This document shows, one piece after another, positions 25,025 to 64,000 of a DNA stretch of 64,000 nt; position 1 is the first letter of the stretch, and every line of letters starts with the position of its first letter. Source of the stretch: Cyanophora paradoxa CCMP329 (taxonomy: Eukaryota; Plantae; Glaucophyta). The notes below the pieces were generated by a model that saw only the letters and a list, made by a program, of their open reading frames with translations, searched no databases and had not been told where the DNA came from. The stretch lies in the NCBI GenBank assembly GCA_004431415.1, contig QPMI01000032.1, positions 62,001-126,000 of the forward strand. The letters are read 5' to 3'. The position numbers and the translations under genes were made by a program.

Positions 25025-25600
25025 TCTATTTTGTCTTTGGTGAATTACCGGCCACAGTCTCTAGACACCAGCACTGCGGGGGCTGCCCAGGGGGCACAGG
25101 GACAAAGAGACAAAATAACTAAGACGAGAGTACGAAGAAGGACAAGACAAAGAGCCCCCCCGCGGCCAAAATCGACAAAAAAAAGGAAAAAGACAAAGCT
25201 AAGATAGACCGAGATCGAGAAGAGACGAAAAGCGATCGCGAACGAGACCGAGCAGATGTACATGTAGCGACAGATCCGGTATCCAGAGGATGATCATGAC
25301 AGACACGAGGAAGAGCTAGAGCTAGAGATAACATCAACGTTAACTTAGTAACATTTGAAGGAACCACATCACTAACAAGCTTAAGCGGAGAGCAGAATTG
25401 ATCATGAGAAAGATAAATCACACTGATCACAGGAAGCAGACAATTGCAAGTCAGAGGAACCACAAGACGACGTGGAGGCTGAGGCGAAGCAGGACGAAGC
25501 GAAAGGGCAGAGCTACGGCAAGGGGAGGACATGTACACAGAAGGCGGATCAGGCGGATCAAGACTCAAGAGCAGGCGTCTAGATCTTTTGCTAACAATTT
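25025..25600 (-). mobile_element. 5'-truncated non-LTR retroposon/SINE-like copy A
   Basis: Conserved 3' end ...GTCTAGAGACTGTGGCCGGTAATTCACC plus A-rich tail. Flanked by the 12-bp direct repeat AAATTTCTATGG (25013-25024, 25601-25612). Confidence 0.7.
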
Positions 25601-25670: not shown

Positions 25671-25950
25671 TTTTTTGGTGAATTACCGGCCACAGTCTCT
25701 AGACACCAGCACTGCGGGGGCTGCCCAGGGGGCATATACAACAAAGAGAACGACTGAAATAAGAAAATTAAGGCAAGAGCACTAAAAGCAACAAGACAGA
25801 GAGCCAAAATCGACCGTCAGACAGCAGAGGAAGAGAGTCCGAGAAGAGACGACGGACGAGAAAATCCGAGACGGAGATCGAGCACAGAAGAGGCAAAGAA
25901 GAGGAAATAGAGAGACACGAGAAAGAGCTAGAACCAGCACAGAGAACGCG
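25671..25950 (-). mobile_element. Same retroposon family, copy B
   Basis: Essentially identical ~55-bp 3' terminus preceded on + by a T-run; CT-rich body on the element strand. 5' boundary approximate. Confidence 0.65.
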
Positions 25951-30702: not shown

Positions 30703-33700
30703 TCGGGCGAAGCCTCTTCGGGCGAAGCCTCTTCGGGCGAAGCCTCTTCGGGCGAAGCCTCTTCCGTTGATCGATGGTGAACGTGCCCATTTATTTTTTT
30801 TCCTCTCGAGTCCGATTGGTCCGAGCGTCCAGATTCGCAACCTCCGCAATGAAGGCGACCGGTCTCCGACGTGACACAGAGTTACACGGCTCCACGGATT
30901 TATTTTCAGACTCATAGCTCCCCTAAAATTTGCCCAAGACGATCGCTCTCCCGTGGGCGTCGGGCGAAAAGAATTTCCCTCCAGGATCAATTCCGGTACT
31001 TATACCCCGGGGTTCGATCGCGAAACTCCAAAAAGTGGGACCCGGTCCCGCGCGGTCCCCCGACGAAAGCGCGCCAGGGACGCCCCAGAGCAATCACAAT
31101 GACAGCCGAGAGCGCGCGCATCGCGGCAAGCTCGATCTCGGCCGCCGCCGACACTCCAGTCCGAAGAGTCGGCCGAAATTTTGATCCTGCCCGTTCCAGC
31201 CGGTCCCCCGACGCACGCATTCGACGCGTACTGGCGCGCACAGACATAGCAAGGCCTGCGCACTCCAGATATCCGCTTTTCGGAGCCGGAACAGCGCAGA
31301 AAGGTACCCGACAGCAGAAATTCGATCCTCCACAGCCCCGGGCAACTTTCCGCGCGCCCACGCCGCGGCGCATGCGCGGATCAATAGCATAAGCATTTGA
31401 GATGTAGAAGAAGCCTTTCGCACGGTCTCTAATTGCGCCGGGCCGCGAGGACCCAGCCGTCCCCGAAAATTCGATTCTGGACGGACCTGCACATCTTTCC
31501 GCGCGCCGTCGTGTCCCCACGCATGCCCATCGCTACAGTATTCATTTGAGATCTAAACGAAGCCTTCCGCAAGCTCTGTGGCCACGACAGAGCACGAGAA
31601 CCCAGCCGACGCCAAATTTTCGATCCTGGACAGGCCTGCACATATTTCCGCGCGCGCTCGCCTCCACAGCCCTGGACATCGATCCTGTACGCATCCGAGA
31701 TTCTGTTTAAGCGATTGATAAGCTCTGCACATGCGCCTGGCCGCGAGAACCTCGCCTCTCCCCTCAACACTCTCCTCTCAATATCCTCAGGGCCTCGAGC
31801 TCAACTACAGCTAGCTGATTGGCAGCACCACTCCTCCCCTCATTATATTCTCTCTCAGCTGCAGCAATTCCCCTTATCACATAATAATATTCTCTCGGCA
31901 CAACTCCTCTCAAGACAACTCCTTCCATAATTATATTCCCTCTCAGCAGCCCTCCCCGCCTCTCTCCCTGCCCCACCGACCCAGCGCCTCCTCGAGCTCC
32001 TCTTAATTCTCCTCTTATTAATTATGTACCAAACCTCCCCTCCCCTCTCCCTGCCCCACCGACCCAAAGACAGCCACGACGGGCCGCGATGATTAAGGGG
32101 GGCGCGAGGTGGGCGGCAGAGGCTTCGCCCGATGTTTGGGACCCGCAGGGGCCCAGGGCTTGTCCGTTGGTCGATGGTGAACGGGCGGAATTATTTTTTT
32201 TCCACTCGAGTCCGATTGGTCCGAGCGTCGAAGTTGACAACCTCCGCAATGAAGGCGAACGGTCTCCGACGTTACATAGCTGAACACGGACATTACACTT
32301 ATTTTTGGAGTCGTGGCTCCCCTCAAATTCCGTCCGCACTCCTGGGTCCCCGCCCGAAAATCGAATTTCCCTCCAGGATCAATTCCGGTATTTATACCCC
32401 GGGGCTCGATCGCGAAACCCCAAAAAGTGGGACCCGGTCCCGCGACGAAAGCGCGCCAGAGACGCCCCAGAGCGGTCACAATCACACCCAAGAGCGCGTG
32501 CATCGCGGCGAGCTCGATTTCAGCCGCCCTTGACGGTCCAGTCCAGAGAGTCGGCCGAAATTTTGATCCACCCGGTTCCGGCCGGTCCCGCGACGCGCGC
32601 AATCGATGCGTCTCGCGCGCATAGACATAGCAAGGCCTGCGCACTCCAGAAATCCGCTTTTCGGATCCAGGACAGCGCAGGAAGGTGCCCGATGGCAAAC
32701 AATCGATCCGCCCCGGGCAACTTTCCGCGCGCCCACGCCGCGGCGCATGCGCGGAGCAATAGTATAAGCATTTGAGATGTAGAAGAAGCCTTTCGCACGG
32801 TCTCTAATTGCGCCGGGCCGCGAGGACCCAGCCGTCCCCGAAAATTCGATTCTGGACGGACCTGCACATCTTTCCGCGCGCCGTCGTGTCCCCACGCATG
32901 CCCATCGCTACAGTATTCATTTGAGATCTAAACGAAGCCTTTCGCAAGCTCTGTGGCCGCGAAAGAGCACGAGAACCCAGCCGACGCCAAATATTCGATC
33001 CTGGACAGGCCTGCACATATTTCCGCGCGCCCTCGCCTCCGCAGCTCTGGGCATCGATCCTGTATGCATCCGAGATTCTGTTCACGTGATTCATAAGCTC
33101 TACGCATGCGCCTGCCCGCCGGAACCTCGCCCGTCCCCTCAACACTCTCCCCTTAATTTCCTCAGGGCCTCGAGCTCAACTACAGCTAGCTGATTGGCAG
33201 CACCACTCCTCCCCTCATTATATTCTCCCTCAGCTGAACCAATTCCCCTAATTACAAAATTATATTCTCTCAGGAAATCTCCTCTCATGCAGGACAACTC
33301 CTCCCATAATTATATTCCGTCGCAACAGCCCTCCCCTCCCCTCTCCCTCCCCTGCCAGGCCAGCTGATTGGCAGCACCACTCCTCCCCTCATTATATTAT
33401 TCTCAAGCCCTATAATATTCCCTCTCAGCAGCCCTCCCCGCCCCTCTCCCTGCCCCGCCGACCCAGCAACAGCCGCGACGGGCCGCGATGAACAAGGGGG
33501 GCGCGAGGAGGGCGGCAGAGGCTTCGCCCGATGTTTGGGACCCGCAGGGGCCCAGGGCTTGTCCGTTGGTCGATGGCCAACTCCCGAAATTATTGTCGGA
33601 TTTGAACCGGCGTTTTTTTCACTGAACCTCCACGAACCTCCGTGATGACGTTACATGAATGTAACGTCCGTGTTACGTTATGGTCACGAATTAGTCACGT

Positions 33701-36216
33701 CCACATCACCGATCAAATTTTTCAAATTTTCGATCGCTCTCCCCTGGGCGTCGCGCGAAAATCGAATTTCCCTCCAGGATCAATTCCGGTATTTATACCC
33801 CGGGGCTCGATCGCGAAACTCCAAAAAGTGGGACCCGGTCCCGCCCGGTCCCGCGACGAAAGCGCGCCAGGGACGCCCCAGAGCGGTCAGAATGACAACC
33901 AAGAGCGCGCGCACCGCTGCAAGCTCGATTTCGGCCGCCGCCGACGCTCCAGTCCGAAGACTCGGCCGAAATTTTGATCCTGCCGGTTCCGCCCGATCCC
34001 ACGGCGCGCGCATTCAATGCGTACTGGCGCGCATAGACATAGCAGGGCCTGCGCACTCCAGATATCCGCTTTTCGGAGCCGAAACAGTGCAGGAAGGTAC
34101 CCGACAGCAAAAATTCGATCCTCCACAGCCCCGGGCAACTTTCCGCGCGCCCACGCCGCGGCGCATGCGCGGAACGATAGTATAAGCATTTGAAATGTAG
34201 AAGATAACTTTCGCACGGTCTCTAAATGCGCCGGGCCGCGAGGGCCCAGCCGACCCCGAAAATTCGATCCTGGACGGACCTGCACATCTTTCCGCGCGCC
34301 GTCGCATCCCCACGCATGCCCATCGCTACAGTTGTCATTTGAGATCTAAACGAAGCCTTCCGCAACCTCTGTGGCCGCGACAGAGCACGTGAACCCAGCC
34401 GACGCCAAATTTTCGATCCTGGACAGGCCTGCACATATTTCCGCGCGCCCTCGCCTCCGCAGCCCTGGACATCGCTCCTGTATGCATCCTAGATTCTGTT
34501 TAAGCGATTGATAAGCTCTGCGCATGCGCCTCGCCGCGAGAACCTCGCCACTCCCTTCAACAATCTCCTCTCAATTTCGTCAGGCCCTCGAGCTCAACTA
34601 CACTGACAGCCAGCTGATTAGCAGCACCACTCCTCCCCTCATTTTATTCTCTCTCATGCAGCTGCAGCAATTCCCCTCATTACATAATTATATTCTCTCA
34701 GGACAGCTCCTCTAGATCTCAGGACAGCTACTCCCATAATTATATTCCCTCTCACCAGCCCTCCCCTCCCCTCTCCCTGCCCCGCCGACCCAGAGACAGC
34801 CGCGACGGGCCGCGATGAACAAGGGGGGGGGGAAGGGGGCAGCAGAGGCTTCGCCCGATGTTTGGGACCCGCAGGGGCCCAGGGCTTGTCGGAAATCCGG
34901 ATCGGCGAACGAAATTCCTGTTCTCTCTCTGTAATGTCCGTACCCCGTGTTCATCGTGGATCAATTCACGCACACACCTCGACAGTGACGTCACGCAATT
35001 TTCCATCGAGTTCTCTCATGGATCAAATCTCAGACTTGTACGCCGACATGTCCGGACGTCTCGAGGAATTCCGATCGTGGCTTCTCGAGGGAGACCGCTC
35101 TCCCATGGCCGTCGCGCGAATATCGAATTTCGGCTCTCCCGTGGGCGTCACGCGAAAATCGAATTTCTCTCGCGAACTAATCCCGGTATTTATACCCCGG
35201 TTCGATCGCGAAACTCCAAAAAGTGGGACCCGGTCCCGCCCGGTCCCGCGACGAAAGCGCGCCAGGAACGCCCCAGAGCGGTACAAAATGAGAGCCGACG
35301 GCGCGCGCACCGCTGCAAGCTCGATTTCGGGCGCCGCCGACACTGCAGTGCGAAGAGTCGGCGGAAACTTTGACCCAGCCGGTCCCGCCCGGTCCCGCGA
35401 CGCGCGCAATCGATGCATACTCACGCGCATAGACATAGCACGGCCTGCGCACTCCAGCGATCCGCTTTTCGGAGCCAGAACAGTGCAGGAAGGCACCCGG
35501 CGGCGAAAATTCGATCCTGCACAGGCCCGGACATCTTTCCGCGCGCCCACGCCGCGGCGCATGCGCGGAACAATAGTATAAGCATTTGAGATGTAGACAA
35601 ATCCTTCCGCGCGCTTTGCAGATGCGCCGGGCCGCGAGGACCCAGCCGACCCCAAGAATTCGATCCTTGACAAACCTGCCCATCTTTCCGCGCGCCCTCG
35701 CATCCTCACGCATGCCCATCCGTACAGTATTCATTTGAGAGCTTTTCCAAGCTTTGCGCAAGCTCTCTGGGGGCGAAAGAGCACAAGAACCCAGCCGACG
35801 CCAAATTTTCGATCCTGCACAGGCCTGAACATATTTCCGTGCGCCCTCGCCTCCGCAGCCCTCCACATTGATAGTATATATATCTGCATTCTAAGAGATT
35901 CGCAAGCTCTACGCATGTGCATGCGCCTGGCCGCGGGAACCTCGCTCCTCGAGCTCCCCTTCGAATTCATGATGAGGAGCTCGAGCGCTAGCTCGAGGTG
36001 AGACCTAGGGGGGAAATATATATATATTTCCCCCCTAGATCTCACCTAGAGCTCGAGCTTCACCGACCAATATATATATTCCCCCCTAGATGTCACCTCG
36101 AGCTCGAGCTCCACCGACCAATATATGGCGGCGATGAATAAGGTGGCGGCGGGCCCGGGGGGGGCTTCGAAAAAGCCCAACCTTTCGGACACGCAAGCTT
36201 AAGGGCCCACGGCTTA
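30703..36216 (+). mobile_element. Tandem array of four ~1.4-kb non-coding units with Helentron/HINE-like ends
   Basis: Unit spacing 1392-1401 bp at internal anchors. Left end TT+(CGGGCGAAGCCTCTT)x4 is the inverse of AGAGGCTTCGCCCGA at 32118, 33517 and 34844, each followed by a hairpin and CTTGT. CT-rich tract in units 1-3; decayed fourth end at ~36130-36216. Confidence 0.55.
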
Positions 36217-37194: not shown

Positions 37195-40100
37195 TCACGC
37201 CGAGGGGCTTGTCACGCGGCCTTGCGTGCGGGCGGCGCGCTGGTGGTACTCGTGGAGGAGAGCCGCCAGCCTGCGAACGCGCCACCGGCATCGCCCCCTC
37301 AGATGCAGCCCAGCCGGGTGGGGGGGGGGGGGGGGGGGGGGAAGGGACGGGGGGGGGAGAGGGGGAGAGGGAATTGAGGGGGGGAGGCGGGGGGGCGGGA
37401 GGAAAAGGGACGGGGGCGAGAGGGGGAGAGGGAATTGAGGGGGGGAGGGGCCCGGGGGGCGGGGGCGGGGGGGGGGGGGGGGTGGAAGGGACGGGGGGGG
37501 AGGGGGGAGAGGGAATTGAGGGGGGGGAGGGGGGGGCGGGCGCACTGCCCGGGGTCCTCCCTCAGGGCCCGGTGCGCCTCTACCAGAGACTCCAACTGAG
37601 GCGCCCGGGTCAGCGCTAAAGAAGGCAGGCTCAATAATAAAGGAGTCAAGTTAGAAGGCAGGCTCAATAAAGGAGTCAAGTTGAAGAAGGCAAGCGCAAT
37701 TAAGGAGTCAAGTTCAAAGCTTAATTTCAATTAAAGAAAGCGAAGGTGGGCTCGCCTTCGCCTTGGTCGCGGCGTGCTCGTTCCGCTCGCTCTTCAGCTC
37801 GCTCTCCTGCGCGCCCGGTCAGAAATCAAGCAGCGATGCAATATAAAGAAGCCCGGGAAAGAGATGGAAAGATGGATATAAAGAAATCAAGTGATGGATG
37901 GATGATGGAAAGATGGAAAGATACAAATCAAACAGAGATGTCATATAAAGAAATCAAGCAGAGATGCAATATAAAGAAGCCCGGGGCGCGGCGCGCGCCT
38001 TGGCGGCGATCTCCGCGTCCTTGTCCGCGATGGCGGCGCTCAGCCTCGCCGCCTCCGCCTCGCTCTCCTCCAGAGCAGAAGCCTGCGCGGGCGCACCCCG
38101 AAGACGCTCGAGTTCATGGATTTGAGGGGCTGGGGCCCGGCCCGGCCCGGCCCGGCCCGGCCCGGGGTATCTTATCCTGCCTTTTCGGCGATTTCCTCGT
38201 CCTTGGCGGCGAGCTCCGCGTCCTTGTCGGCTAGCTGCGTGCCCTTGGCGGCGACGTCCGCCCGCAGCTCCTCGGCCTCCGCCGCGCTCGCCTCGAGGCG
38301 CGAGGCCTGCGCGACGTCGACCCGGATCAGTTCCCGGTCGGAGAGGGGCCGGCCGCCCGAGGCGGCGGCCCAGCGCTAGCGCTAACGCGCCTTGTCGGCG
38401 AGCTCCTCCTCCTTGGCGGATAGCTGGGCCCGCAGCGCGCTCTCCTGCGCGCGGGCCGGATCAGTTCCCGGTCGGAGAGGGCGGAGAGGGGCCGCCCGAT
38501 CATATGAGGCGGAGGCGGCGGCCCAGCGAGCGCGCGCGCCTTGTCGGCGAGCTCCTTCTCCTTGGCGGCGAGCTCCTTCTCCTTGGCGGCGAGCTCCGCG
38601 TCCTTGGCGGCGAGCTCCTTCTCCTTGGCGGCGAGCTCCGCGTCCTTGGCGGCGAGCTCCTTCTCCTTGGCGGCGAGCTCCGCGTCCTTGGCGGCGAGCT
38701 CCTTCTCCTTGGCGGCGAGCTGCGCGTCCTTGGCGGCGAGCTCCTTCTCCTTGGCGGCGAGCTCCGCGTCCTTGGCGGCGAGCTCCTTCTCCTTGGCGGC
38801 GAGCTCCGCGTCCTTGGCGGCGAGCTCCTTCTCCTTGGCGGCGAGCTCCGCGTCCTTGGCGGCGAGCTCCTTCTCCTTGGCGGCGAGCTCCGCGTCCTTG
38901 GCGGCGAGCTCCTTCTCCTTGGCGGCGAGCTCCGCGTCCTTGGCGGCGAGCTCCTTCTCCTTGGCGGCGAGCTGCGCCCGCAGCGTGCTCTCCTGCGGGC
39001 TCGATCAGAAGAGCAACGAGATACTAATATATAAAGAGGGCGGAGGCTAAGGCCCAGCGCGCCTTGTCGACGATTTCCTTGTCCTTGGCGGCGATTTCGT
39101 TGTGCTTGGCGGCGATTTCCTTGTGCTTGGCGGCGAGCTCCGCGTCCTTGGCGGCGAGCTGGGCCCGCAGCCTCGCCACCAGCGCCGCGCTCTCCTCCAG
39201 ACCGGAGGCCTGCGCGCCACGTACCCCGTACCCCGGTCAGCACTTCGGAGGGAGGTTGCTGTACCCCTCCCCACGCCCCCCTCAAAAAGATTAGCGCACG
39301 AGCTGGCTCTTGTCCGCCTGGAGCTGCCTGTTCTGCGCCGCGCTCTCCTCCAGGCTGGAGGCCTGCGCGCCCCGCGGCCGCGCGCGTACCCCCGGTCAGC
39401 ATCTGGAGGGAGGCCGTACCCCCCAAAAAGGACGAGAAAAGCGCACGAGCTCCGCCTTGTCCGCCCGCAGCTGCTCGTTCAGCGCCTCGAGCGACCTGCA
39501 CTGACCCTCCAGCCGCCCGCTGCTCGCCTCCAGCTGCCGCACGCCGCCCTCCAGACGGGCCTGCTCCGCCTCCAGCCGCCCATTCTGCCGCTCGAGCTGT
39601 TCGTTCAGCTGCTGCAGCTGGCGCTTGTCGGCGTGGAGCTGCTTCCCGGCCTCCCGCAGCTCACACAGGGCCGACTCTGCAAGCTGAGCTCTCTCCCCCA
39701 GCCGCCCGTTGAGCTCCCGCAGCCGATCCGCCTCCTGCTTTTCCTGCTCGAGGCTGTCCTCCAGCCGCCCCTTCTGCTCCCGGAGCCGCCCGAATGCGGC
39801 CGTCTTCGCGACGAGCCGTATCCTCGAGAGGAGCCCCGCGTTCCGGAGCCGCTCCTTGTCCGCCTGGAGCTGCTCGACCCGCCCCTGCAGCTGACCGTTC
39901 TCCCACTCGAGGGGCGCCCACTGCGCCGCCCGAGTCGGGAGGGGGCGCGGGCGGGGAGCTCGAGGGGGCCCCGGCCCGGCCCGGCTTTGAGCGCACCGGG
40001 TCGGACTCGAAGGGGCCTTCGGGCGCAGCGCCGGCCTCCTCCGCCTCCTCCGAGGCGGGGGGCGCCGCGGGGGCGCCCTCCTGCCGAGTCTGCCTGTCAG

Positions 40101-53317: not shown

Positions 53318-53811
53318 GTTGTTCGAGGTCTCTGCTTTCGTGATCAATATGAATTATAATGGCAAGAGATAATCATGAGGAGCTCGAGCTCAGGCTGGGC
53401 CGGGCACTAGTACTCGCCGTGCACGCACGTGCACGTGCCACGTGGGTCGTGCTGCACAGCCGGCGCCTGCGCTAGCGCGGCAGCACTGCAGCAGTAGCCG
53501 TAGCTATAGTAGCGCTGCGCAGCTCAGGCTGCTCGAGCCTCGAGCTCAGCCGCCTCAGCGGGCTACCACTGCCTACCAGGCTGAGCCTGGCTGACCGTCG
53601 GACAGCGGCTGCTAGGCTAATACTATATATATTCGTACTAATTTCGTACTGCGGTAGTTGGCTACCGTGTACCGTCGACTTACCGACGTTACTTAGGACT
53701 CTTAAGTTAGGAGTCGGTTTTCTTGTTACCAGAAGGTGTCCATCTATGATCCATATCATGATCATATGCATCATTCGAATTGAACCACTCATGATCATAA
53801 AACATCATCAG

Positions 53812-53941
53812 ATTTTGGCTCTTTGTCTTATCTTTCTTCGTGCTCTTGTCTTAGTTATTTTGCTTTTTTGTCTTTATGCCCCCTGGGCAGCCCCCGCAGT
53901 GCTGGTGTCTAGAGACTGTGGCCGGTAATTCACCAAAAAAA
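53812..53941 (+). mobile_element. Same retroposon family as 25.0/25.7 kb, 130-bp copy C
   Basis: Ends ...GGCCGGTAATTCACC plus poly(A); flanked by ATCATCAG at 53804-53811 and 53942-53949. Confidence 0.8.
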
Positions 53942-54577
53942 ATCATCAGCAAATTAAAAAAAGCTGAAAAGGCTAGAAGGCTAGTAGAAGCCTATAGCTA
54001 GTAGTAGAAGGGCCAAAATGGGCTAGTATGAGGATACTAAGAGCTACTTCGCCAAAAAGGGGCTGCGCATGCTAGACATTGCTAGTACGTAGCTGACTCA
54101 GTGACAAGTTCACTGACAACTCAGTTGAACTAACTGTGGACGCAGAAAGTTTTCCCAGCGCCAATTGCAATCATTTTTGAATTGCAAGTTGAACCGCCCA
54201 CTTTCCGAACACTGCCAGCAGACTGGCAGCAGTACTAGTGCTGTCATTATAACGTACTCACTGAGTCATTACGTGACACGTTAAAACGTGACGTTATAAC
54301 GCGTTATAACGACCCCAGAGATCATAGTGGAGTATTACGCCATGGCTACATAAACGAAAAATCCCGAAATAATACAAATACATTCGAATTCCCCACGATA
54401 TTCAGTAATACATACTTTTCATCGATAAATTCAATCGAGATATTCCCACTGACTCACTGATATCATCAATCATTTCATTAAACCCCTGACGATATTCAGT
54501 AACAAAAACAAAAAAATCACGCCATGGCTACAATTACATCTTTATCATCTTTATCATATTTCATTTCCATTTCCCAC

Positions 54578-55642
54578 TTACCTCGATTGCTTTATCGTTT
54601 TACTTCTCAGATTATACTTCTTCCTTACAACATTCTTTCGATTCGGCTTGATCCCTTCTTTCGCTAATTTGCGATTTACTTCATTCGTTTTCGCAACTCT
54701 TATAATCCTCTTTTGATCAGGAATCTTAATAACATCAGCCTTACTCACTTTCTGTAACTCGTTCTTTTTAAAACGTCTCTTAACTTCCTTTACTTCTCCA
54801 TCCATATTTTCTAATACTTTGAACCTATTGTTATCTTTTGCACCAATTGTATATACTTTCTTGCTAAACCTTGCACCTTCTTTATCAAATATCCCTTTGG
54901 GCTCCAACACCCGAACAGTATCGCCTTGTTTCACATCAACTTGTTCAGTATCTTTCACTTGGTCGTTATGCACTGAATCCCGCAAGTAAATATATAGCTG
55001 CTTATGGTCACTATTATATACATTGTTTGGGGTGTCGTTCTTCAAAGAAGAATGAGGGGAACTGTTGTATGTGTCTAAAACTTCTTTCACTAAATCGAGC
55101 CATTTCGAGCTTCCCTTTGCAATCATTGCCTTTCTCAGATACTGCTTAAAAGAAATCGTAAATCTATCTATGATACCTAACTTGTTGCCTACCGAAATGT
55201 GGTCGTCTTTTGCTACATCTGTGTAGAGTTCCACACCATTTGCGCTGCACCATTCACGATAAACTCTCTGTGAAAACTCATTATCTCCCGCCAATCCTAC
55301 AACTTTCCCGGCATCCTGCTTAAACCTATCTAAAATGCCCTGAATTTCGGAAGACTCTTTGAAAGGATACACGAATGCTCTCCTGCTCAAAATCTCAATG
55401 AAACTAAGCGCCTCACCAATGCCTCTATTAGCTGTTTGAAATCCTCTAAAAAACATAATGTCTACTTGAAATGATCGGGGTCTCGCTACAATACGTAAAA
55501 AGCTCTTTGGTCTTTTTGGTTTCTTGAAAATCTGTTGTAGTTCCGAGTTCTCGAACTGTTTTTTTAGTTTCGCCTCGTCAAAACTTACACCTTCATTAAT
55601 TAGTTTCTGCCTGTATTTCTTGTATGATAACACTGTATCCAT
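54578..55642 (-). CDS. rve-type (Polinton-like) integrase, copy 1
   Basis: FQVDIMF, GDNEF, LGIIDRF (third acidic residue D), YNSSPHSSL..TP, and C-terminal VKQGDTVRV..KGIFDK..FSKKVYTI. ATG at 55642. Confidence 0.9.
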   Translation of the reverse strand: MDTVLSYKKYRQKLINEGVSFDEAKLKKQFENSELQQIFKKPKRPKSFLRIVARPRSFQVDIMFFRGFQTANRGIGEALSFIEILSRRAFVYPFKESSEIQGILDRFKQDAGKVVGLAGDNEFSQRVYREWCSANGVELYTDVAKDDHISVGNKLGIIDRFTISFKQYLRKAMIAKGSSKWLDLVKEVLDTYNSSPHSSLKNDTPNNVYNSDHKQLYIYLRDSVHNDQVKDTEQVDVKQGDTVRVLEPKGIFDKEGARFSKKVYTIGAKDNNRFKVLENMDGEVKEVKRRFKKNELQKVSKADVIKIPDQKRIIRVAKTNEVNRKLAKEGIKPNRKNVVRKKYNLRSKTIKQSR

Positions 55643-58600
55643 CACTGAGCCGCACAGTTACACTTAATATGAGAGAGGGAAATATTACCGATAACATGAG
55701 CGACCGCATTGTTTTCGCGGTCAACCGAGACCTCATCGTAATCCATAATTTGGAAGCATCGCCAACAAAGCCCATTCTGAATTCCGAATCTTTGCTTTAT
55801 CCATGGATAAGTAACATACATAGATTCGACGAAATCGCGACCTGCAACCTTGTCTTGATGTTTATAACCTTGAATCAGTCTATGCATTCTTGATTTGAAA
55901 GCGCCCATATCATAAATCTCGCTTCCATCCACACAAATCACGGTGTCCTTCAAATATGGTGTCCTGGTCAGTGCGACCCACAACCAATATTTGGTGACGT
56001 GGGGCGATTGCGCCTCGAAAACAACCACCCGCTTATTTTTTACGGTGTCACCTTGCACAACGTGACACGTATTTGCATAGGGAAGCGTGAAATGCTTGAT
56101 TGAATCGTATGGAAGCGTTATTTTAATGCTTTCATCTGCGTAGTCTGAAATCGTAAGCGTGGTTTCGTTCAGATCCTCGATGATATACGAGAATCCATTA
56201 TGGATGATTACACTCTCGTCATCTGCCGTCTTCCCTTTCGTCAGGCGCTGCTTTGCTATAATTTCGAGCCCTTTAAAATGAGTTGGCGTATCTATACCAT
56301 ACTTAATGCGGTGGATCATAGCATTAACCTGTGCTGCTTTGCGGTTTGTGTAAGTAATAGCTCTATCGTCAGGTCGCAACTGATCAGGCGAAATAACAGG
56401 TATGTTATGCTTTGCAAGGAATGCGGATATGTCCATGTTCTTTTCGAATAAATCTTGCTTCCATTCGAGAATCTTTTCGCGATCTTCTGGCAAAATGTGG
56501 CGCTTATTCACATGCAACTCTAACAAGCTCGGGAAGAGCTGCTCAAAGATCTCGTTATAATATTCCTTCTGATCCACACTAAGGAACTGAATAGGTGGAT
56601 TTTGCAACGGGTCACCATTCAGAATGTAGGTCTTGTCAGGGTAGGCGACTTTCATCATGTGTTTCAGTGCTGCAAGCTGTGGTATGCTAAGCTGGTAGCC
56701 TTCATCCATAACAATGCATTGATAAGGTGCAATCTTGCTTGCATTCGCACCCACAACATCATCCATTTGGGAATCATCGATTTTCAGATTGAACGCACCA
56801 TGAATGGTCATCACATTCTCCAAACCATCTTCGACTTTCATTTCTTTGACACGCTTGTTAGTGGGCGTGATATATAAGCAACTGTCGAATTTGCCACCGA
56901 TCGCCTTGCTCACATACGACTTTCCGGTTCCTGGGGCATTTCCCTCAATTCTTATGCCTTTCCCTTTGGAAAGCATCATATCACATATCGCTTTTGTGTC
57001 AAATTCATCGGGAACCGTATATGTTGTGCAATCATTCTTTCTCACAGTAACGAAATCCCTCAGTCTCTCCGGCTTGAAGAATCGAATCATTCCATTTGTC
57101 CTCTTTGTCTCAAGCTTCTTATGTAAGATCTTATTGCAATACTCATTGAAAGATATAGGTTTCGTGCTGAAACGTCCGATATTCTCATGCTTCGTGCGAT
57201 CGAATTTAACTTCTTCTACATCTAAGCTTTCGTCGATTGCCTCATAGACTGCATCAACTTTAAGAGCCATAATGACACCCTTTGATTCCCTGCACTTCTT
57301 ATACAGATCCATTCGTTGTTTTGAATAGACCATATTTTGGATTGGAAGGAATCCATCTTTTAGTAGCCTTTCTTCTATTTTCTCCACATACCAAATGTGT
57401 GGGTCTGTTATCTCGTCAGCTGCAACAATGCGATCTGGGTTTTCGTAATCTTCAATTGCATGTTCTTCTTCAATTTCGGGTTTAACCTGATTTTTCCTTT
57501 GTTTTCGTTCTTCATAAGCTTGAATCCATTTTTCGTAGTTTGAGACTTTGATTTGAGATTCGGTTTTGGCTTCTGTGGATTGATTGGGCTTCTTCTCACC
57601 GAGCCACAGTAATTTGACGTCGCCACCATGCTTTCTGGCAAACTCGATAGCATCCGATTTTAGGAAAAACGGTTTGGTTCGCGATCTCTGATTCTTTTGT
57701 TTCCCGAGCATTCCAATAATACTTACAAGAATCTGCTTCTTCTCAGTTTCGCTAAGGTTGCTCTCTAAGATCTGTTTGATAACATATTTAACAACGTTCT
57801 TGACAATTCGATATGGTTTTAAGATGTATTTTACATCGATTATGTCTATCAGGTCATCAAAGTATTCTTTGAGCATGATCCCTGGGATCAGGTTACATGG
57901 TGAATCTATGAGAATTCGCTTTGCTTTGGGATATCTGTATTGCACCCACTCCTTTCCAGTAGAGTCCTTCTTAATAAGGTATTGTCCTTTCTTCAAAGTC
58001 ACGTAGTAGAAGCTGTAAGGTTCCACATCGGCGACTGATTGTATGGACACATCCTTAAAGTCATCGAATTCGCTAAATACCGGGAAATACTCAAACGAAT
58101 TTACGTGACCTGCATAGGCTTTGCAACCATCGTGTTCGAACATTTTCAGGCACCCATCATTCAAATCCTTAATGATTTCGGCGGAATCTTCAAAGCGACC
58201 ATTTAAGGCACTCTGGGAACCGACCACGAAAGCATTTCGTGTGCTTTCGTTGTAGGAACTCTTCAAGGATCTGTTAATTAATGCTTCGTAGAACATGTTA
58301 TTATATTTGGTAAATGCATCCCGCTGCTCTGAGTTCTCGAACTGCAAGTGGTAAGCTGTCTCAACTTCGACTTCTGGGCACACAGGTATAATGATGACAT
58401 CCTTGTTCTGATACTTGAACCTTATGCTTTGGATGGATCCGAGAACCGAAATTCTGGCATCAGCTATGTAATTATGCACTGTCAGGAAGGAAGCATACAA
58501 TTTAGTCAGACCACCTGCACCACCGTAATTGATGCGGATAAGGTTCTTTTTTGTCGCCTCATCTGATTGGAGAATACCTACAATATGATCCTCATTGGCT

Positions 58601-58818
58601 GCGAAAAAACTACCACTGTTGTTATCGTTTCTTCTTAGCCTGTATCTGCAACCCAACGGCATATCTTTCTCAGTAGGCTTAGATCCATTGAAAGATTGAA
58701 TGAGGCTCTCAACATTATTATTGAGTAAATACATGTGTCCATTTTGAACTTTGACATACATGGTGGATGGTCGGAGGAATTTGTTCCTCGTTCTCTTTCC
58801 GTTTGCATCCACAGGAAT
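55642..58818 (-). pseudogene. 3' part of a vOTU-like/pPolB/SF1 helicase/HNH fusion gene, disrupted by insertion
   Basis: NGHMY; PolB-like motifs A HDGCKAY, B KQILVSIIGMLGK, C ALKVDAVY; helicase GNAPGTGKS, IVMDEG, GDPLQNPP, YANTCHVVQGDT, WVALTR; C-terminal CWRC..VDRENNAVAH...N...H..CN. Confidence 0.85.
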
Positions 58819-61640
58819 TTTTTTCACAAAGCCCATATCAAGGGCGGTGGCGATTGTATTTGTTCAGTAACATCATCGTACGCACTACCGGTTCGGAATA
58901 GGCCGAACTCTGGGTCAGAGCATAACCTGAGGCCGGAACACAGGGATAGGCGCCTCGACGCTACAGCTGAGCGTTTCTCTTGTGGGGGGAGGCGTGGGAG
59001 GGGGTCGTAGGTGTGAGTGTAGACGTACAGTTGGGAGTCGTGGCGCCATGGGGGCCAAGCTTATCAGTCAGGGGAGAGCGGGGCGGGGAGGGAGGGGGGG
59101 AGGGGAGCGGCGCGGGCTAGGGTAGCGGGCGCGCCCCCCGATTTTTATTGCGTGTGGGGCGCGGGGTGGGTGTGGGCCGGGTAGGGGCTTTATCGGGTAT
59201 GCCGCGGCCGCGGGGACGGGCGGTGGCGGGCGGGGTGGGCACCCTAGGAGGGTCAGGGGACAGAGGGGCGTGGCGGGGGCGCAGGCCGTGGAGCTAGTCT
59301 GTCGCAAGCGTCCGGGCCGGAGAGATGCTTAGGGAGGTGGGGCGAACCCGTAGGCGGGCAAGGCTTAATGCGAGGGCGGGTAGGGGGGTGTCATTGCTTC
59401 ATGGAGCTATCTAACTCAGAGAGGAGGGCGGCGGGCTTGTCACAAGGCCCCTTTCTTCGGCAGTCATGCTACCGCAAATTGTAGAGAGAGGAAAGAGAAA
59501 GAAATCGGGGGCCGAAAGGGTAAAAGTGCCGAGAGAGGAAATTTCTACGCTGCCGCGTTGTCGGCGGCGGCCGCCCGGCGGCCGGCCAGGAGGGCCTCGA
59601 TGGCGGCGGGGCCCCCGAGGGCCCAGGTGAGCTCGGCGAGCACGCGCTGGGCCGCCTGGTAGTTGGTAAGCGAGATGGTGGCCGGCCCAGGGCCGGGGGC
59701 GGGGGCCGGGCCCGGGGCGGGCGCGGGGGCGGCGGCCGGTGCCGGGGCGGCGGCGGCGGCGACGGCGGCGGCAGCGGCGGCGGCGGCAGCAGCGGCAGCG
59801 GTGGCGGCGTTGGCGGCAGCAGCGGGGGCGGCCGCGGCGGCCGCGGCGGCGGGGCGGGGGCGGCGGCACCGCCCTCGCGCTTCTTGACGGCGTCGGGGCC
59901 GAAGCGCTCGATCGCGCGCTTGTGGGACTGGGCGGCGATGTCCGCCGCGAGCTGGGCGGCCTCCTCGGGGTCTTGTCCTCGTTAAGGGCGCTGAGGCGGT
60001 TGAGCCGGCGCGCCCCCGTCGAGTGGCCGGGGCGGTAGGACGCGCGGCCACCCCGTCGGGGTAGTTGATGCGGTGCTCCCGGGATCGAGATCTTCTTGCT
60101 GTTCTTGGTGGCCTCGAGGGCCACCGAGTCGGGGCCGCCCCCTATAGCTATATATATGCAAATGATCATGAGCTCAAGGGCCTATATAGCTAGCTATGCG
60201 CTTGTACGCATGCAGTATATATATACCGTACGCGGACCCTGTCCTGGTTCTCTTGTTAAACGTTTAGACTCTGAGAGATTTGCATGCAAGTTCGAGCTCG
60301 AGCGAGGGTGCCCAGCTCCCTCGTGCAGTTAAAATCTTTCGAATCGCTCCACTAGGGGGCCAAGCTTTTAAGGGCCTCCTAAAGCAGACGGGGGCCGACT
60401 TATTCGTGTGTATATCGATATCGCAGGCGCCCCTCAAGCTCGCCGACCGTATAGGAGGCTTGCATCGCGGGGGGTGTGCAGGGGACCGGTCGCCTCGTGG
60501 GGGAGGGGCCGGCGGGCATGAGGGGCGGGCGGCGCGGGGCCTGGCAGCGACCGCCGGGGACGCACTGCCCGCCGCTGGGAAGTCTTCGACGGAGCCGGGG
60601 ATTCCGGGTCCGATAGTGGGCGAGCGCCATCAGGCTCGGACCCCACGAGGGCGGGTCCCGGCGAGGCCGGGCCCTGAGGCAGGCGAGCGCCGTCTGGCTC
60701 AGACCCCGCGGTGGTAGCTGGGCGAGCGTTTGAGTGCTCATGCGCCCGGGTAGACGTAGGGGACGTCGGCTTGCATGCCGGCGCCAGCGGCGCCAGGGGA
60801 ACGATTTGCATAGGCGCCAGCGGCGCCAGCAGAGGCGGCATCACAGCTCGGGGCTCTGTCCACTGCCGCGTCTTGGGGCGCTTGCTCCGCGTCCCGCCAG
60901 AGGCCTGCGAGCGTCGCGCACGCGTCACGGAGAGCCAAGTGAGCGGGGGGGACGCGGCCCCGTGGTTCTTGAGTGTCGTGCTGGCGCGGGCGGCCCCGCG
61001 CACGGGCCGCCGGCGCCGGCGTGCTCTGTGGCCGTACGGGTCCGGCGTCAGAGTTCATAGAGGAGGGGCGCGGGCGGAGGGCGTGAGCGACGGGCGCGGG
61101 GAGGGTCCCGCATGATCGGCGGCAGCGGAGCCGGGTGCGTTGGCGGAGCCACGCGTCCGACTGCGCGGAGTCGAGTCGAGTTGTGCGTCGTGCGCTGTGG
61201 GCGTGGGCTCAGGCGAGCCGCGCATGCGCGGGTGGCATGCGTTGGCGGGAAGGCGGGCGGAGCGAGGACGGGAGCTTAAACGGGCGTATGTTGGCTCTAG
61301 ATGTTGTGGGGCGTCTCTCGGGCGCGCTCGGAGTGGCAGGAGAAGGCGGCGGGGACCGGCCCGTTTAAACACGTTACCGCGGGAGCTGGCGCGAGTCGCG
61401 GCGCCAACAGGGGCGCAGCTGCTCTTCGAGATGTCTGTGGTGTCGCTGCGGCTGTCGTTGCCCGCCCGGCGGACCTACTTTGCGCGTTCGGGCCGTGCTG
61501 GTCGTTGGGCGTCGGCGCCGCGAGTTTTGGGACCGGCCACGTGCAGTGCTAGCAGGCACCCTCGTTGGGGAAGCCCCACTGCGCCGGCTTACTCGCTCGC
61601 GGGCCTTCGCGCAATTTTCCGGGGTACCGGAATCGCGGCC
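58819..61640 (-). mobile_element. 2822-bp GC-rich retroposed insertion (non-autonomous, no RT seen)
   Basis: Perfect 14-bp TSD GCATCCACAGGAAT at 58805-58818 and 61641-61654; short A-tail on the minus strand; frameshifted Ala-rich ORF remnant at ~59545-60140. Confidence 0.88.
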
Positions 61641-62326
61641 GCATCCACAGGAATATAGGATAGGGCATAGTCCACTTTATCATTCTCGTCTAGTACTATC
61701 ATAGAAAGCTTGTATGGCTTCAGAAATGCATCGGTAATTTGTCGTAATGATAATCCCATATCGTCCCCATCAACAGGATCCCGACCATGCACCAATTTGA
61801 ACAAGAAGGCATGATTCAGCTTGATAGAAACGTAGCGCCCATAATCTTTGGCTTTTTCAAACGCTGGTGCAAATACAGCAATGATAGCATCATGCACACA
61901 TGATTTAATTCTCAATTCCTTGTTCTTTGTTTTATCAAAGAAATCACAGAATGACTTTGAGTTAACATCAAATTCGTAAGTAAGATACTTAGATGGGATC
62001 ATAGGCGCTTGATAGTCTCGTAAGATCTGGTCGATCCTGGGGATAAAGTCGTTATCGTTCTCAGGTCTTATCTTCTCGATTGTCAGGACATCACTGTAAG
62101 TGCCTGTGTGAACGTTTTTCAGATAAATTAAATCAGGGTTTCTATTACCAAACTGCATGTTTTCGAAAATGAATTGTTTGATTGCTTTTTTTTCGAAACA
62201 TGGGACATTGGTAAATGGTCTGTTCATAAGATCGAGGGATTTTATGAAAAGGTCTTTCTTCAATTTAACCGAATGGAATGAACCGTCTTTTCTGTCTTTG
62301 AGAACTTGGTAGTATCTGTCACCAGC
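61641..62326 (-). pseudogene. 5' part of the copy 1 fusion gene
   Basis: Open from 62326 with no ATG before the copy 2 junction. Contains KSCVHDAI and joins in frame across the TSD (YALSYIPVDA|NGKRT). Confidence 0.85.
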
Positions 62327-62563
62327 TCAGCACTGCGCCGTGTCTCCAAAAAAATCCCCGCGAAAAAATCAAAAACAAATCAAAAACAAACCATTCCCAG
62401 TAACCCTATTCGTATTCAACAGTAATCTCAGTAAGCCTCAGTAACAAAAATCGAATTAATCGAAGTTATATCTTAAATCTTATTTATCGAAGTTATATCA
62501 TAATCTCGATTAATTATATTTAATCGAAGTTATTTCCTTTTTATCCGCCGTGTCTCCCATGAT

Positions 62564-63625
62564 TTAGCGTTTCGTTAAACCACTTCTCAGATTGTATCTT
62601 CTCCTTACAACATTACTTCGATTGGGTTTTATGCCTTCCTTTGCTACCAATCGATTCACTTTATTCGTCTTATTAACCTGCTGAATTCTTTTTTGCGATG
62701 GGATCTTTATGATATCATCTTTATTCACCTTTTGCAATTCTTGCTTCTTAAATCTCCTCTTCACTTCTTTCGTTTCCTCACCATCATTATCTTCAAGCAC
62801 TTTGAAACGATTCCTATCAGCCTTTGCAACAGTGTAGACCTTCTGACTGAATTGCGCACCTTCTTTTTCAAATAACCCCTTCGGTTGCAAAACTCGAACT
62901 GTGTCTCCTGGTTTCACTTGATTAGTATCAGCCTCCTTTACACGATTGTTGTGAACAGTATCTCTCATGTAAATAAATAACTGTTTATCTTCATTTGTAT
63001 ACACTGCATTCGGTGAGTCATTTTTCAATGCCGAATGGGGACTGCTATTATACAAGTCAATAACATCACTAAGTAGATCGATCCATTTCGTGGTTCCCTT
63101 TGCTGTCATCGTTTTTCTGAGATACTGTTTGAAAGTCCTAGTGAACCTATCAATAATCCCCAGTTTATCTCCTACTGTGATGTGGTCATCCTTTGCCACA
63201 TCTGTGTAAAGCATCACACCATGTTCACTGCACCAATTTCGGTATACTGCTTGGGAGAACTCATTATCCCCAGAGAGAGCATTAACTTTGCCTGCTTCTT
63301 GCTTGAACCTATTTAAAATACTCGGGATCTCACTGCTGTTTTTAAAAGGATAAACAAATCCTTTGCGACTAAGTATGTCTACGAAACTAAGCATTTTGAA
63401 AATGCCATTGTTGGCAGTCTGAAACCCTCTGAAATATGTTATATCGATTTGAAACGATCTAGGCTTTGCCACTATGCGAAGAAACGATTTGGGTTTCCTT
63501 GGTTTCTTGTAGATTTGCTGGAGTTCTGAGTTTTTGAATTTCTTTTTCAACTCTTTTTCATCAAAACTCACTTTTTCATTAATCAGTTTCTGCCTATACT
63601 TTTTGAATGATAATACACTATCCAT
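62564..63625 (-). CDS. rve-type integrase, copy 2
   Basis: FQIDITY, GDNEF, LGIIDRFTRTFK; 48 of the first 60 residues identical to copy 1; intact ORF. Confidence 0.9.
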   Translation of the reverse strand: MDSVLSFKKYRQKLINEKVSFDEKELKKKFKNSELQQIYKKPRKPKSFLRIVAKPRSFQIDITYFRGFQTANNGIFKMLSFVDILSRKGFVYPFKNSSEIPSILNRFKQEAGKVNALSGDNEFSQAVYRNWCSEHGVMLYTDVAKDDHITVGDKLGIIDRFTRTFKQYLRKTMTAKGTTKWIDLLSDVIDLYNSSPHSALKNDSPNAVYTNEDKQLFIYMRDTVHNNRVKEADTNQVKPGDTVRVLQPKGLFEKEGAQFSQKVYTVAKADRNRFKVLEDNDGEETKEVKRRFKKQELQKVNKDDIIKIPSQKRIQQVNKTNKVNRLVAKEGIKPNRSNVVRRRYNLRSGLTKR

Positions 63626-64000
63626 TATTGGGCGGCGCAGTTACACTTAATATGAGAGAGGAAACAATTTTTGGTAACGTGAGCCACAGCATTATTAATT
63701 CGATCTACCGAAATATCTTCAAAGTCCATGGCATTGTAGCATCGCAGGCAATGCCCATACTGCTTCCCATATCGCTGCTTGATCCAATCCCATGTGATGT
63801 AATCATGCTCATCGAATTGTCTGTTTGCTGCTCGGTCCTGATCCTTGTAAGTCGATATTTTCTCGTTATTCTCTCTCTTCCACACCTTCCAGTGAGCCAT
63901 TTCGAAATTATCATGGTAAATAACGACATCATCCAGCCTTGTGGTTCGTGTGAGAGCAACATAGAGCCACTTCTTTGACACAAATGGCGCCCCAGTTTCG
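63625..64000 (-). CDS. C-terminus of the helicase/HNH fusion protein, copy 2 (5'-partial)
   Basis: Frame open to the window edge: ETGAPFVSKKWLYVALTR...CLRC...VDRINNAVAHVTKNCFLSHIKCNCAAQ*. Confidence 0.88.
   Translation of the reverse strand, partial: ETGAPFVSKKWLYVALTRTTRLDDVVIYHDNFEMAHWKVWKRENNEKISTYKDQDRAANRQFDEHDYITWDWIKQRYGKQYGHCLRCYNAMDFEDISVDRINNAVAHVTKNCFLSHIKCNCAAQ

Follow-up and report, generated by a model that had tools for sequence, protein, structure and literature searches.

Two nested AT-rich elements, probably endogenous Tlr1-type polinton-like viruses, and a likely retroposed third element in the genome of Cyanophora paradoxa

The right-hand end of a 64,000-nt stretch of DNA from the glaucophyte Cyanophora paradoxa CCMP329 (contig QPMI01000032.1, positions 62,001 to 126,000 of the forward strand; hereafter the window, numbered from its first letter) contains two related AT-rich units nested one inside the other, the outer one being also split by a third, likely retroposed, GC-rich element. 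Both units are probably endogenous Tlr1-type polinton-like viruses (PLVs) whose capsid genes, if present, would lie past the edge of the window. Unit 2, which occurs in multiple copies and has its fixed end at 62324, sits inside the replicase gene of unit 1, and sibling copies of unit 1 devoid of both inserts are found in public sequencing runs. Profile, structure and read evidence support the family assignment, which a sequence-only reading of the window had already proposed from an rve integrase lying next to a protease-polymerase-helicase-HNH fusion.

The two units, which span 54326-64000, have a GC content of 0.38-0.40 and lie within a GC-rich, intron-type eukaryotic background (0.66 in 1-53800). 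The Pfam domains found elsewhere in the window (histidine-kinase ATPase, kinase, MYND finger and hAT transposase) would fit a microbial eukaryote. Boundaries and empty sites were mapped with contigs from public DNA runs: 14 of the 24 listed public runs contain at least half of the window's words, and four DNA runs (X1, X3, X10 and X14) were aligned, all of which bear one organism label and one of which may be the window's own source. Relative to the single-copy flank (depth 76-113), depth reaches ~13-16x in unit 2, ~2-3x in unit 1 and ~10x in the GC-rich insert, these and all other depth figures being a rough guide and not a copy number.

On the minus strand, both units show a terminus, 240-252 bp of non-coding sequence (~240 bp in the sequence-only reading), an integrase gene and the C-terminal end of a large fusion gene. 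This common layout of two AT-rich, intronless units had been correctly recognized, the 69% GC insert that interrupts unit 1 at 58819-61640 having been left out. The units are 70% identical at the DNA level over 1.2 kb, and their proteins share 72% (integrases, 354 and 353 aa) and 53% (fusion ends, over 124 aa) identity. Differences occur mostly at third codon positions (in the integrase, 0.58 vs 0.22 and 0.17), which argues that selection kept the proteins of both lineages functional after their split.

The depth jump, the flanks and the contig ends place the start of unit 1 at 54326 (AGTGGAGTAT...) and that of unit 2 at 62324 (AGCTCAGCAC...). The AG start anticipated earlier is thus retained, and the positions first assigned to it, 54331 and 62329, are moved 5 nt to the left. 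Both ends read AG-N3-AG and have 15 of their 24 terminal bases in common; Maverick/Polinton elements likewise have 5'-AG ends. A degenerate 24-nt pattern matched only these two ends in the window and nothing in 100 shuffles; since it was derived from the ends themselves, it shows only that the window has no third copy. In all four runs, the contig of the single-copy flank (53915-54355) stops 30 nt past 54326, as would be expected of a 31-mer graph fork where shared sequence begins. The non-coding ends, each with a 5'-AG start (54326-54577 in unit 1 and 62324-62563 in unit 2), likely represent one arm of the terminal inverted repeat (TIR) of their unit, the only arm within a window that ends at 64000. 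In unit 1, the terminal motif GCCATGGCTACA recurs 182 nt inside, and in unit 2, the motif CCGTGTCTCC recurs 210 nt inside. The terminal 37-mer of unit 2 is about twice as deep as the unit 2 body (2714/1333 in X1 and 2371/1009 in X3), as expected from two inverted ends per copy, with the above reserve on depth. From the sequence and, for unit 2, the fork position, the left target-site duplications are predicted to be GATCAT in the host flank of unit 1 (54320-54325) and GTCACC within the unit 1 gene (62318-62323), on the assumption, for GATCAT, of a length of 5-6 bp; they replace TAGTGG and CAGCTC, which rested on ends placed 5 nt off. Within the unit 2 end, 62448-62538 holds three copies of a 27-nt AT-rich repeat, a region variable among copies.

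Depth climbs from 200 to more than 2,700 at 62324, and this end of unit 2 is joined by at least four different flanks in the contigs of the DNA runs; such a fixed end with many flanks shows integration. The contig matching 61641-62323 continues for 304 letters unlike the window in X1, X3 and X14, and halts exactly at 62323 in X10. The first 30 of these letters are identical in X1 and X3 and, by hand check, stop-free in the fusion frame. The unit 1 gene thus continues in its siblings, and tandem fragments can be rejected. The nested integration proposed in that reading is therefore upheld, but not the argument drawn from the stop codon TGA at 62329-62327, said to use the first base of the inner copy, as this codon is wholly inside unit 2. 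At this locus, unit 1 differs by ~1-1.5% from its siblings and is without stops, hence both insertions are likely recent. Because it no longer has a whole replicase, the outer copy is likely inert on its own. Over 62230-62366, two possible RNA runs gave no match in one case and, in the other, a single contig consisting of the end and another flank, also present in DNA.

The interrupted gene encodes a fusion protein and is present in unit 1 as two minus-strand pieces, the C-terminal 1,058 codons (55642-58818) and the upstream 223 codons (61655-62323), the latter cut by unit 2 at 62323|62324. In unit 2, only the last 124 codons (63625-64000), with helicase motif VI and the HNH domain, precede the cut made by the window edge. 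On a profile of 1,312 positions, built from 109 of 150 homologues, these pieces correspond to positions 364-1298, 153-356 (about 150 positions being missing at the front) and 1172-1298, respectively. A search with the C-terminal 1,058 residues gave 778 homologues, and the structure model of these residues has a predicted local distance difference test score of 81. In this model, residues 602-967 match the Pif1, RecD2 and Dda helicases (Z 19-26, best 25.7), in line with an SF1B helicase at ~600-965, and residues 68-566 match phi29 polymerase (Z 12.7, root-mean-square deviation 4.7, 349 aligned residues). The best viral-fold match, over nearly the whole protein, is BFVD H6WBE3 (999 aa, E 2e-27), which we take to be a transpoviron protein. 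The polymerase residues of motifs A (D230), B (K361) and C (D522) are invariant, motif C reading KVD, and the Walker A/B motifs, the motif VI Arg and the HNH residues C1018, C1021, H1041 and N1045 (domain 1018-1055) are conserved among homologues. The Pfam scan gave no DNA_pol_B_2 match, and the Atlas lead to this family (0.94) concerns 11% of members, with recognition below threshold; the polymerase is assigned by structure and motifs, not by profile.

On the phi29 side, the match starts from residue 5, which belongs to the exonuclease domain; on the fusion side, it takes in ~58220-58620 (residues 68-200). The 349 aligned residues are more than the palm region alone offers, and a degenerate exonuclease remnant may sit between the protease and the palm. 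In the account given in PMC11161782, the replicase of Tlr1 type is described as lacking an exonuclease.

For the protease, which is split in unit 1, the whole homologue P0052 (residues 1-273) was folded: its best matches are OTU domains in 17 of 17 cases (Z 6.5-4.8), and its Cys and His were mapped onto the two pieces of the window, where they correspond to C142 of the upstream piece (codon 61900-61898) and H28 of the C-terminal piece. The resulting layout, vOTU-palm-S1H-HNH, is a Tlr1-type architecture already described for Tlr1-like helicases, for which polymerase and protease activities have been predicted (PMC11161782). In searches of viral contigs, a single fusion protein used as query found no relative, whereas alignment queries did; a word-indexed search with the helicase-HNH region returned two proteins.

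The third layer of the nest is a multi-copy insert of 2,822 bp (58819-61640, minus strand, GC 0.69), flanked by two copies of a 14-bp duplication, GCATCCACAGGAAT, at 58805-58818 and 61641-61654. It carries A6 at its 3' end, the six further T at its left side corresponding to a short A tail on the minus strand. Repeat comparison and contig joints agree on these limits: in two of the four runs, contigs run directly from 58804 into 61641, 14 letters being compatible with either side, which defines an empty site, and in the other two, the contig at the insert site ends 16 letters further on. No Pfam match, and none to a reverse transcriptase, was found among the 16 frames scanned of the 28 of at least 70 aa; the search for RNA families gave one chance-level Rfam match, and no terminal repeats were found. 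The 14-bp duplication, the short A6 tail, the lack of terminal repeats and the empty site in two of four runs are features of retroposons without long terminal repeats (LTRs), and this insert is likely a non-autonomous retroposon moved by a long interspersed nuclear element. It splits the OTU protease between the invariant Cys and His (each in 40 of 40 rows); the flanking gene pieces keep the same phase across the duplication and follow each other in order on the profile. The possibility that the insert is a spliceosomal intron was discarded, since no cut within the duplication offers a GT..AG pair and the insert is missing from DNA contigs; a tRNA-derived short interspersed nuclear element, an LTR element or a TIR element found no support in repeat, terminal-repeat and Rfam searches. 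Other copies of the insert carry internal deletions or indels, and the bins at both of its ends are deeper than the middle, so that shorter derivatives may exist.

The integrases of unit 1 (54578-55642) and unit 2 (62564-63625), both on the minus strand, share the triad D61-D120-D159. Their Pfam rve and rve_3 matches are below cut-off (E 0.005 for rve_3 in unit 1), and their assignment as rve-type draws on homologues and triad columns. Among 50 homologues, seven carry PF00665; D120 and D159 are invariant and D61 nearly invariant across 36 rows. D159 falls on the catalytic Glu of a solved retroviral-type integrase in a weak alignment (E 0.35). Asp occupies the third site in 49 of the 50 homologues, a less biased figure than the 82 of 83 fetched loci, for which the search pattern required Asp. 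A literature search for D-D-D integrases in polinton-like elements returned nothing relevant, although such a site may be published, e.g., in Fig. 6 or S6-S7 of PMC11161782 or in bioRxiv supplements, where an exonuclease remnant or the present lineage may be covered as well. The integrase phylogeny envisaged earlier was built as a quick tree of 81 rows (omitting integrases below 330 aa, exact duplicates, L024, L040 and 34 of the 50 homologues); it makes units 1 and 2 sisters (support 100) and leaves their deeper placement unsettled, with long-branch warnings. In a search of genome contigs, three short integrase contigs were found in bacterial bins.

In both units, the stop codon of the fusion gene overlaps the start codon of the integrase gene by one base, as TGATG in unit 1 (55640-55644) and TAATG in unit 2 (63623-63627), both on the minus strand. 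None of the 57 relatives measured shows this arrangement, their gaps being 5-342 nt, plus one 23-nt overlap. As described in PMC2699510, UAAUG drives termination-reinitiation in a hypovirus. One might guess that the overlap couples translation of the integrase to that of the replicase, plain compaction being as possible.

The nature of complete elements was approached through relatives. Among 86 loci, 17 match the profile of the fusion, and both genes, with the fusion in first position, occur in 14; after removal of duplicates, four distinct two-gene relatives of at least 9 kb were retained (L001, L002, L003 and L057). L003 and L057 encode the fusion, then the integrase, together with an A32 ATPase (Pfam E 3.6e-9 and 5.2e-17, respectively). 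The capsid-like protein of L057 has Atlas neighbours including DJR/Capsid_N members at 0.97-0.98, and that of L003 matches it (E ~1e-11 to 1e-13); by our own reading, and with no Pfam match, both loci also carry penton-like genes. A further locus, L006, combines a fusion homologue with an ATPase and a capsid-like gene whose match is weak. In L003, the fusion-integrase pair comes after the virion genes; since the integrase lies next to the end in the window, any virion genes of the units would lie to the right of 64000. Relatives carrying this gene pair speak for a virus with capsid genes rather than for a capsid-less element. No exact match to the unit 2 end was found in viral contigs. Two of the long relatives, L001 (2273-7097) and L002 (1621-7657), are 16-17% GC contigs of one giant-virus bin, with an integrase and a fusion whose HNH domain is in mid-protein; they may be elements of a giant virus, either transpoviron-like or integrated. 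In L004 (3-8276), a virophage-type capsid, a penton, an ATPase and a protease-like gene lie beside a fusion homologue.

Several observations weigh against the reading as nested PLVs. With 13 seeds, tblastn gave no match to a capsid or ATPase gene in the window, as had been apparent on inspection, and for neither unit is the far end or a second copy of the target duplication seen, the window stopping at 64000. L001 (17 kb) and L002 (11.6 kb), i.e., two of the four long relatives, show no confirmed virion gene, and the Atlas recognition value of the L057 capsid is below threshold (1911 vs 2300). The OTU matches score below a Z of 8, the level under which the tool advises caution, and a profile-profile comparison of the fusion with the plain pPolBs of relatives was not significant (probability 1.3%, motif C alone being aligned). 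The relatives are distant, with integrase identity of at most 45%, and integrases of the same group also follow plain pPolB genes (L007, L011 and L017; Pfam match in 3 of 10 scanned), so that neighbours predict gene content loosely. This agrees with the module swapping reported among such elements (bioRxiv 10.64898/2026.06.19.733378). Finally, no listed contig bridges 62323|62324 in X1 or X3, run support for this junction being confined to the X10 contig that stops at 62323.

The sequence-only reading had left a choice between endogenous viruses and capsid-less self-synthesising transposons. The latter would resemble transpovirons except for an rve integrase, and would spread within the genome or in the particles of other viruses. 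The relatives point to the virus, and the capsid-less alternative is kept as a rather unlikely one. It draws on the lack of virion genes found in the window, on L001 and L002, on transpovirons, which bear such a replicase without capsids (PMC5499653), and on the tight stop/start overlap that sets both units apart from the relatives measured. However, the available part of both units stops short of the region that holds the virion genes in L003, virion modules accompany this replicase in L003, the L057 group, L004 and L006, and L001 and L002, in which end-to-end inverted repeats were not found, are not shown to be complete. In its fullest form, to which we would also give only a minor chance, this alternative describes an element made of a protease-polymerase-helicase-HNH protein, a TRATG-coupled D-D-D integrase and inverted ends, which would still multiply in a eukaryotic genome and insert into its own relatives. 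Endogenous virophages that acquired this replicase and integrase are quite improbable: L004 does carry, beside a fusion homologue, capsid genes of Sputnik type, both major (Pfam E 1e-37) and minor (1e-6), and PLVs and virophages of one host are reported to share replication and integration modules (bioRxiv 10.64898/2026.07.28.741278), but the available 8.4 kb of L004 contain no integrase, and L003 and L057, which combine both genes with a capsid, have non-virophage capsids with no Sputnik Pfam match. Least probable of all is an assembly chimera of two repeat families at 62323|62324, absent from the cell: three of the four runs do assemble straight through the empty site and X1 and X3 list no contig across the join, yet the latter coincides with the first base of an independently mapped unit 2 end, the two paths after 62323 share no sequence able to mislead an assembler, the X10 contig stops exactly where a graph fork requires, and minor branches are, as stated by the tool, dropped from contigs.

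As endogenous Tlr1-type PLVs, each element would consist of linear DNA bounded by inverted ends. Through its D-D-D site, the rve integrase would join the 5'-AG ends to a target with little sequence preference, producing a 5-6 bp duplication, and its synthesis may be coupled to that of the replicase by the overlap discussed above. The fusion protein would replicate the element, with the OTU protease releasing an N-terminal priming domain, the polymerase palm copying the DNA and the SF1B helicase unwinding it; the HNH domain is probably carried along as a passenger of homing type.

Among known systems, the closest likeness is with Tlr1 of Tetrahymena thermophila and the PLVs with a "Tlr1-like helicase" (pPolB-S1H). 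Tlr1 is described as having an rve integrase, capsids, an ATPase and this type of replicase (PMC11161782; PMC5499653). Like the present units, these elements combine an rve-type integrase with a vOTU-protein-primed palm-SF1 helicase fusion bearing a C-terminal homing nuclease, keep the vOTU Cys and His as well as motifs A and B, have lost the first Asp of motif C (KVD), and are multi-copy in a eukaryotic genome. In contrast, the nuclease of Tlr1 is described as GIY-YIG instead of HNH, the latter being reported in other PLVs, and the third integrase residue is Asp in the present units, Tlr1 being compared by description. The double jelly-roll capsid, penton and A32 ATPase of such viruses are not seen in the present units, both being cut at 64000. 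The fusion is also known in reverse order, the order found here being listed as known (PMC12721341). With Maverick/Polinton elements, the units share the rve integrase, the protein-primed polymerase type and, likely, inverted ends with short duplications (PMC12220804). Unlike strict members of this group, they carry a helicase-fused derivative and not a full pPolB with intact exonuclease motifs, and neither the maturation protease nor the ATPase is seen in the window, where both units are cut at 64000. Transpovirons of Mimiviridae have the same kind of replicase fusion (PMC11161782) but are described as ~7-kb episomes of giant viruses, with no integrase mentioned in these descriptions, whereas the present units have an integrase and are integrated in nuclear DNA among intron-type host genes and host repeats.

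Endogenous PLVs are reported to be common in protists (PMC10120064). PLVs and virophages nested in one another, and GC-rich retroelements splitting viral genes, have been described in Halocafeteria (bioRxiv 10.64898/2026.07.28.741278), cryptophytes (PMC12220804) and Cafeteria (PMC8547959). As in these cases, a GC-rich element splits a viral gene here; it differs in its smaller size (2.8 kb), in that neither a reverse transcriptase nor long direct repeats were detected, and in its 14-bp duplication and short A tail.

The host part of the window contains other repeats. A ~130-bp repeat at 53811-53940, 390 bp to the left of unit 1, has inverted copies at 25036-25156 and 25671-25811; its mean bin depth is ~1e5 vs 90, and it probably exists in thousands of copies. 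Four diverged tandem units of ~1.4 kb, 80-91% identical and with internal 149-nt subrepeats, occupy 30763-35945. A hAT transposase C-terminal dimerisation domain (17268-18341, E 9e-12) is part of a host DNA transposon, and a 42-nt coding tandem repeat at 38180-39216 encodes an (AAKEKEL/AAKDAEL)n coiled-coil.

Both the architecture of the fusion and the nesting of such elements have thus been published, and the present case is a clean new example: a base-exact nest of three layers, in which each inner element has its empty site. Within a single genome, two diverged lineages of a Tlr1-type element seem to have moved recently, their copy numbers being roughly estimated from depth at ~15 and 2-3. 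Two predictions made for this replicase (PMC11161782) could be tested in the intact siblings that such a family offers, namely the activity of a palm deprived of the first motif C Asp and the self-cleavage of the polyprotein by its OTU domain. The finding would matter more if the overlap proved to drive reinitiation in a nuclear DNA element, or if full copies proved to be capsid-less, in which case they would represent an integrating nuclear counterpart of transpovirons.

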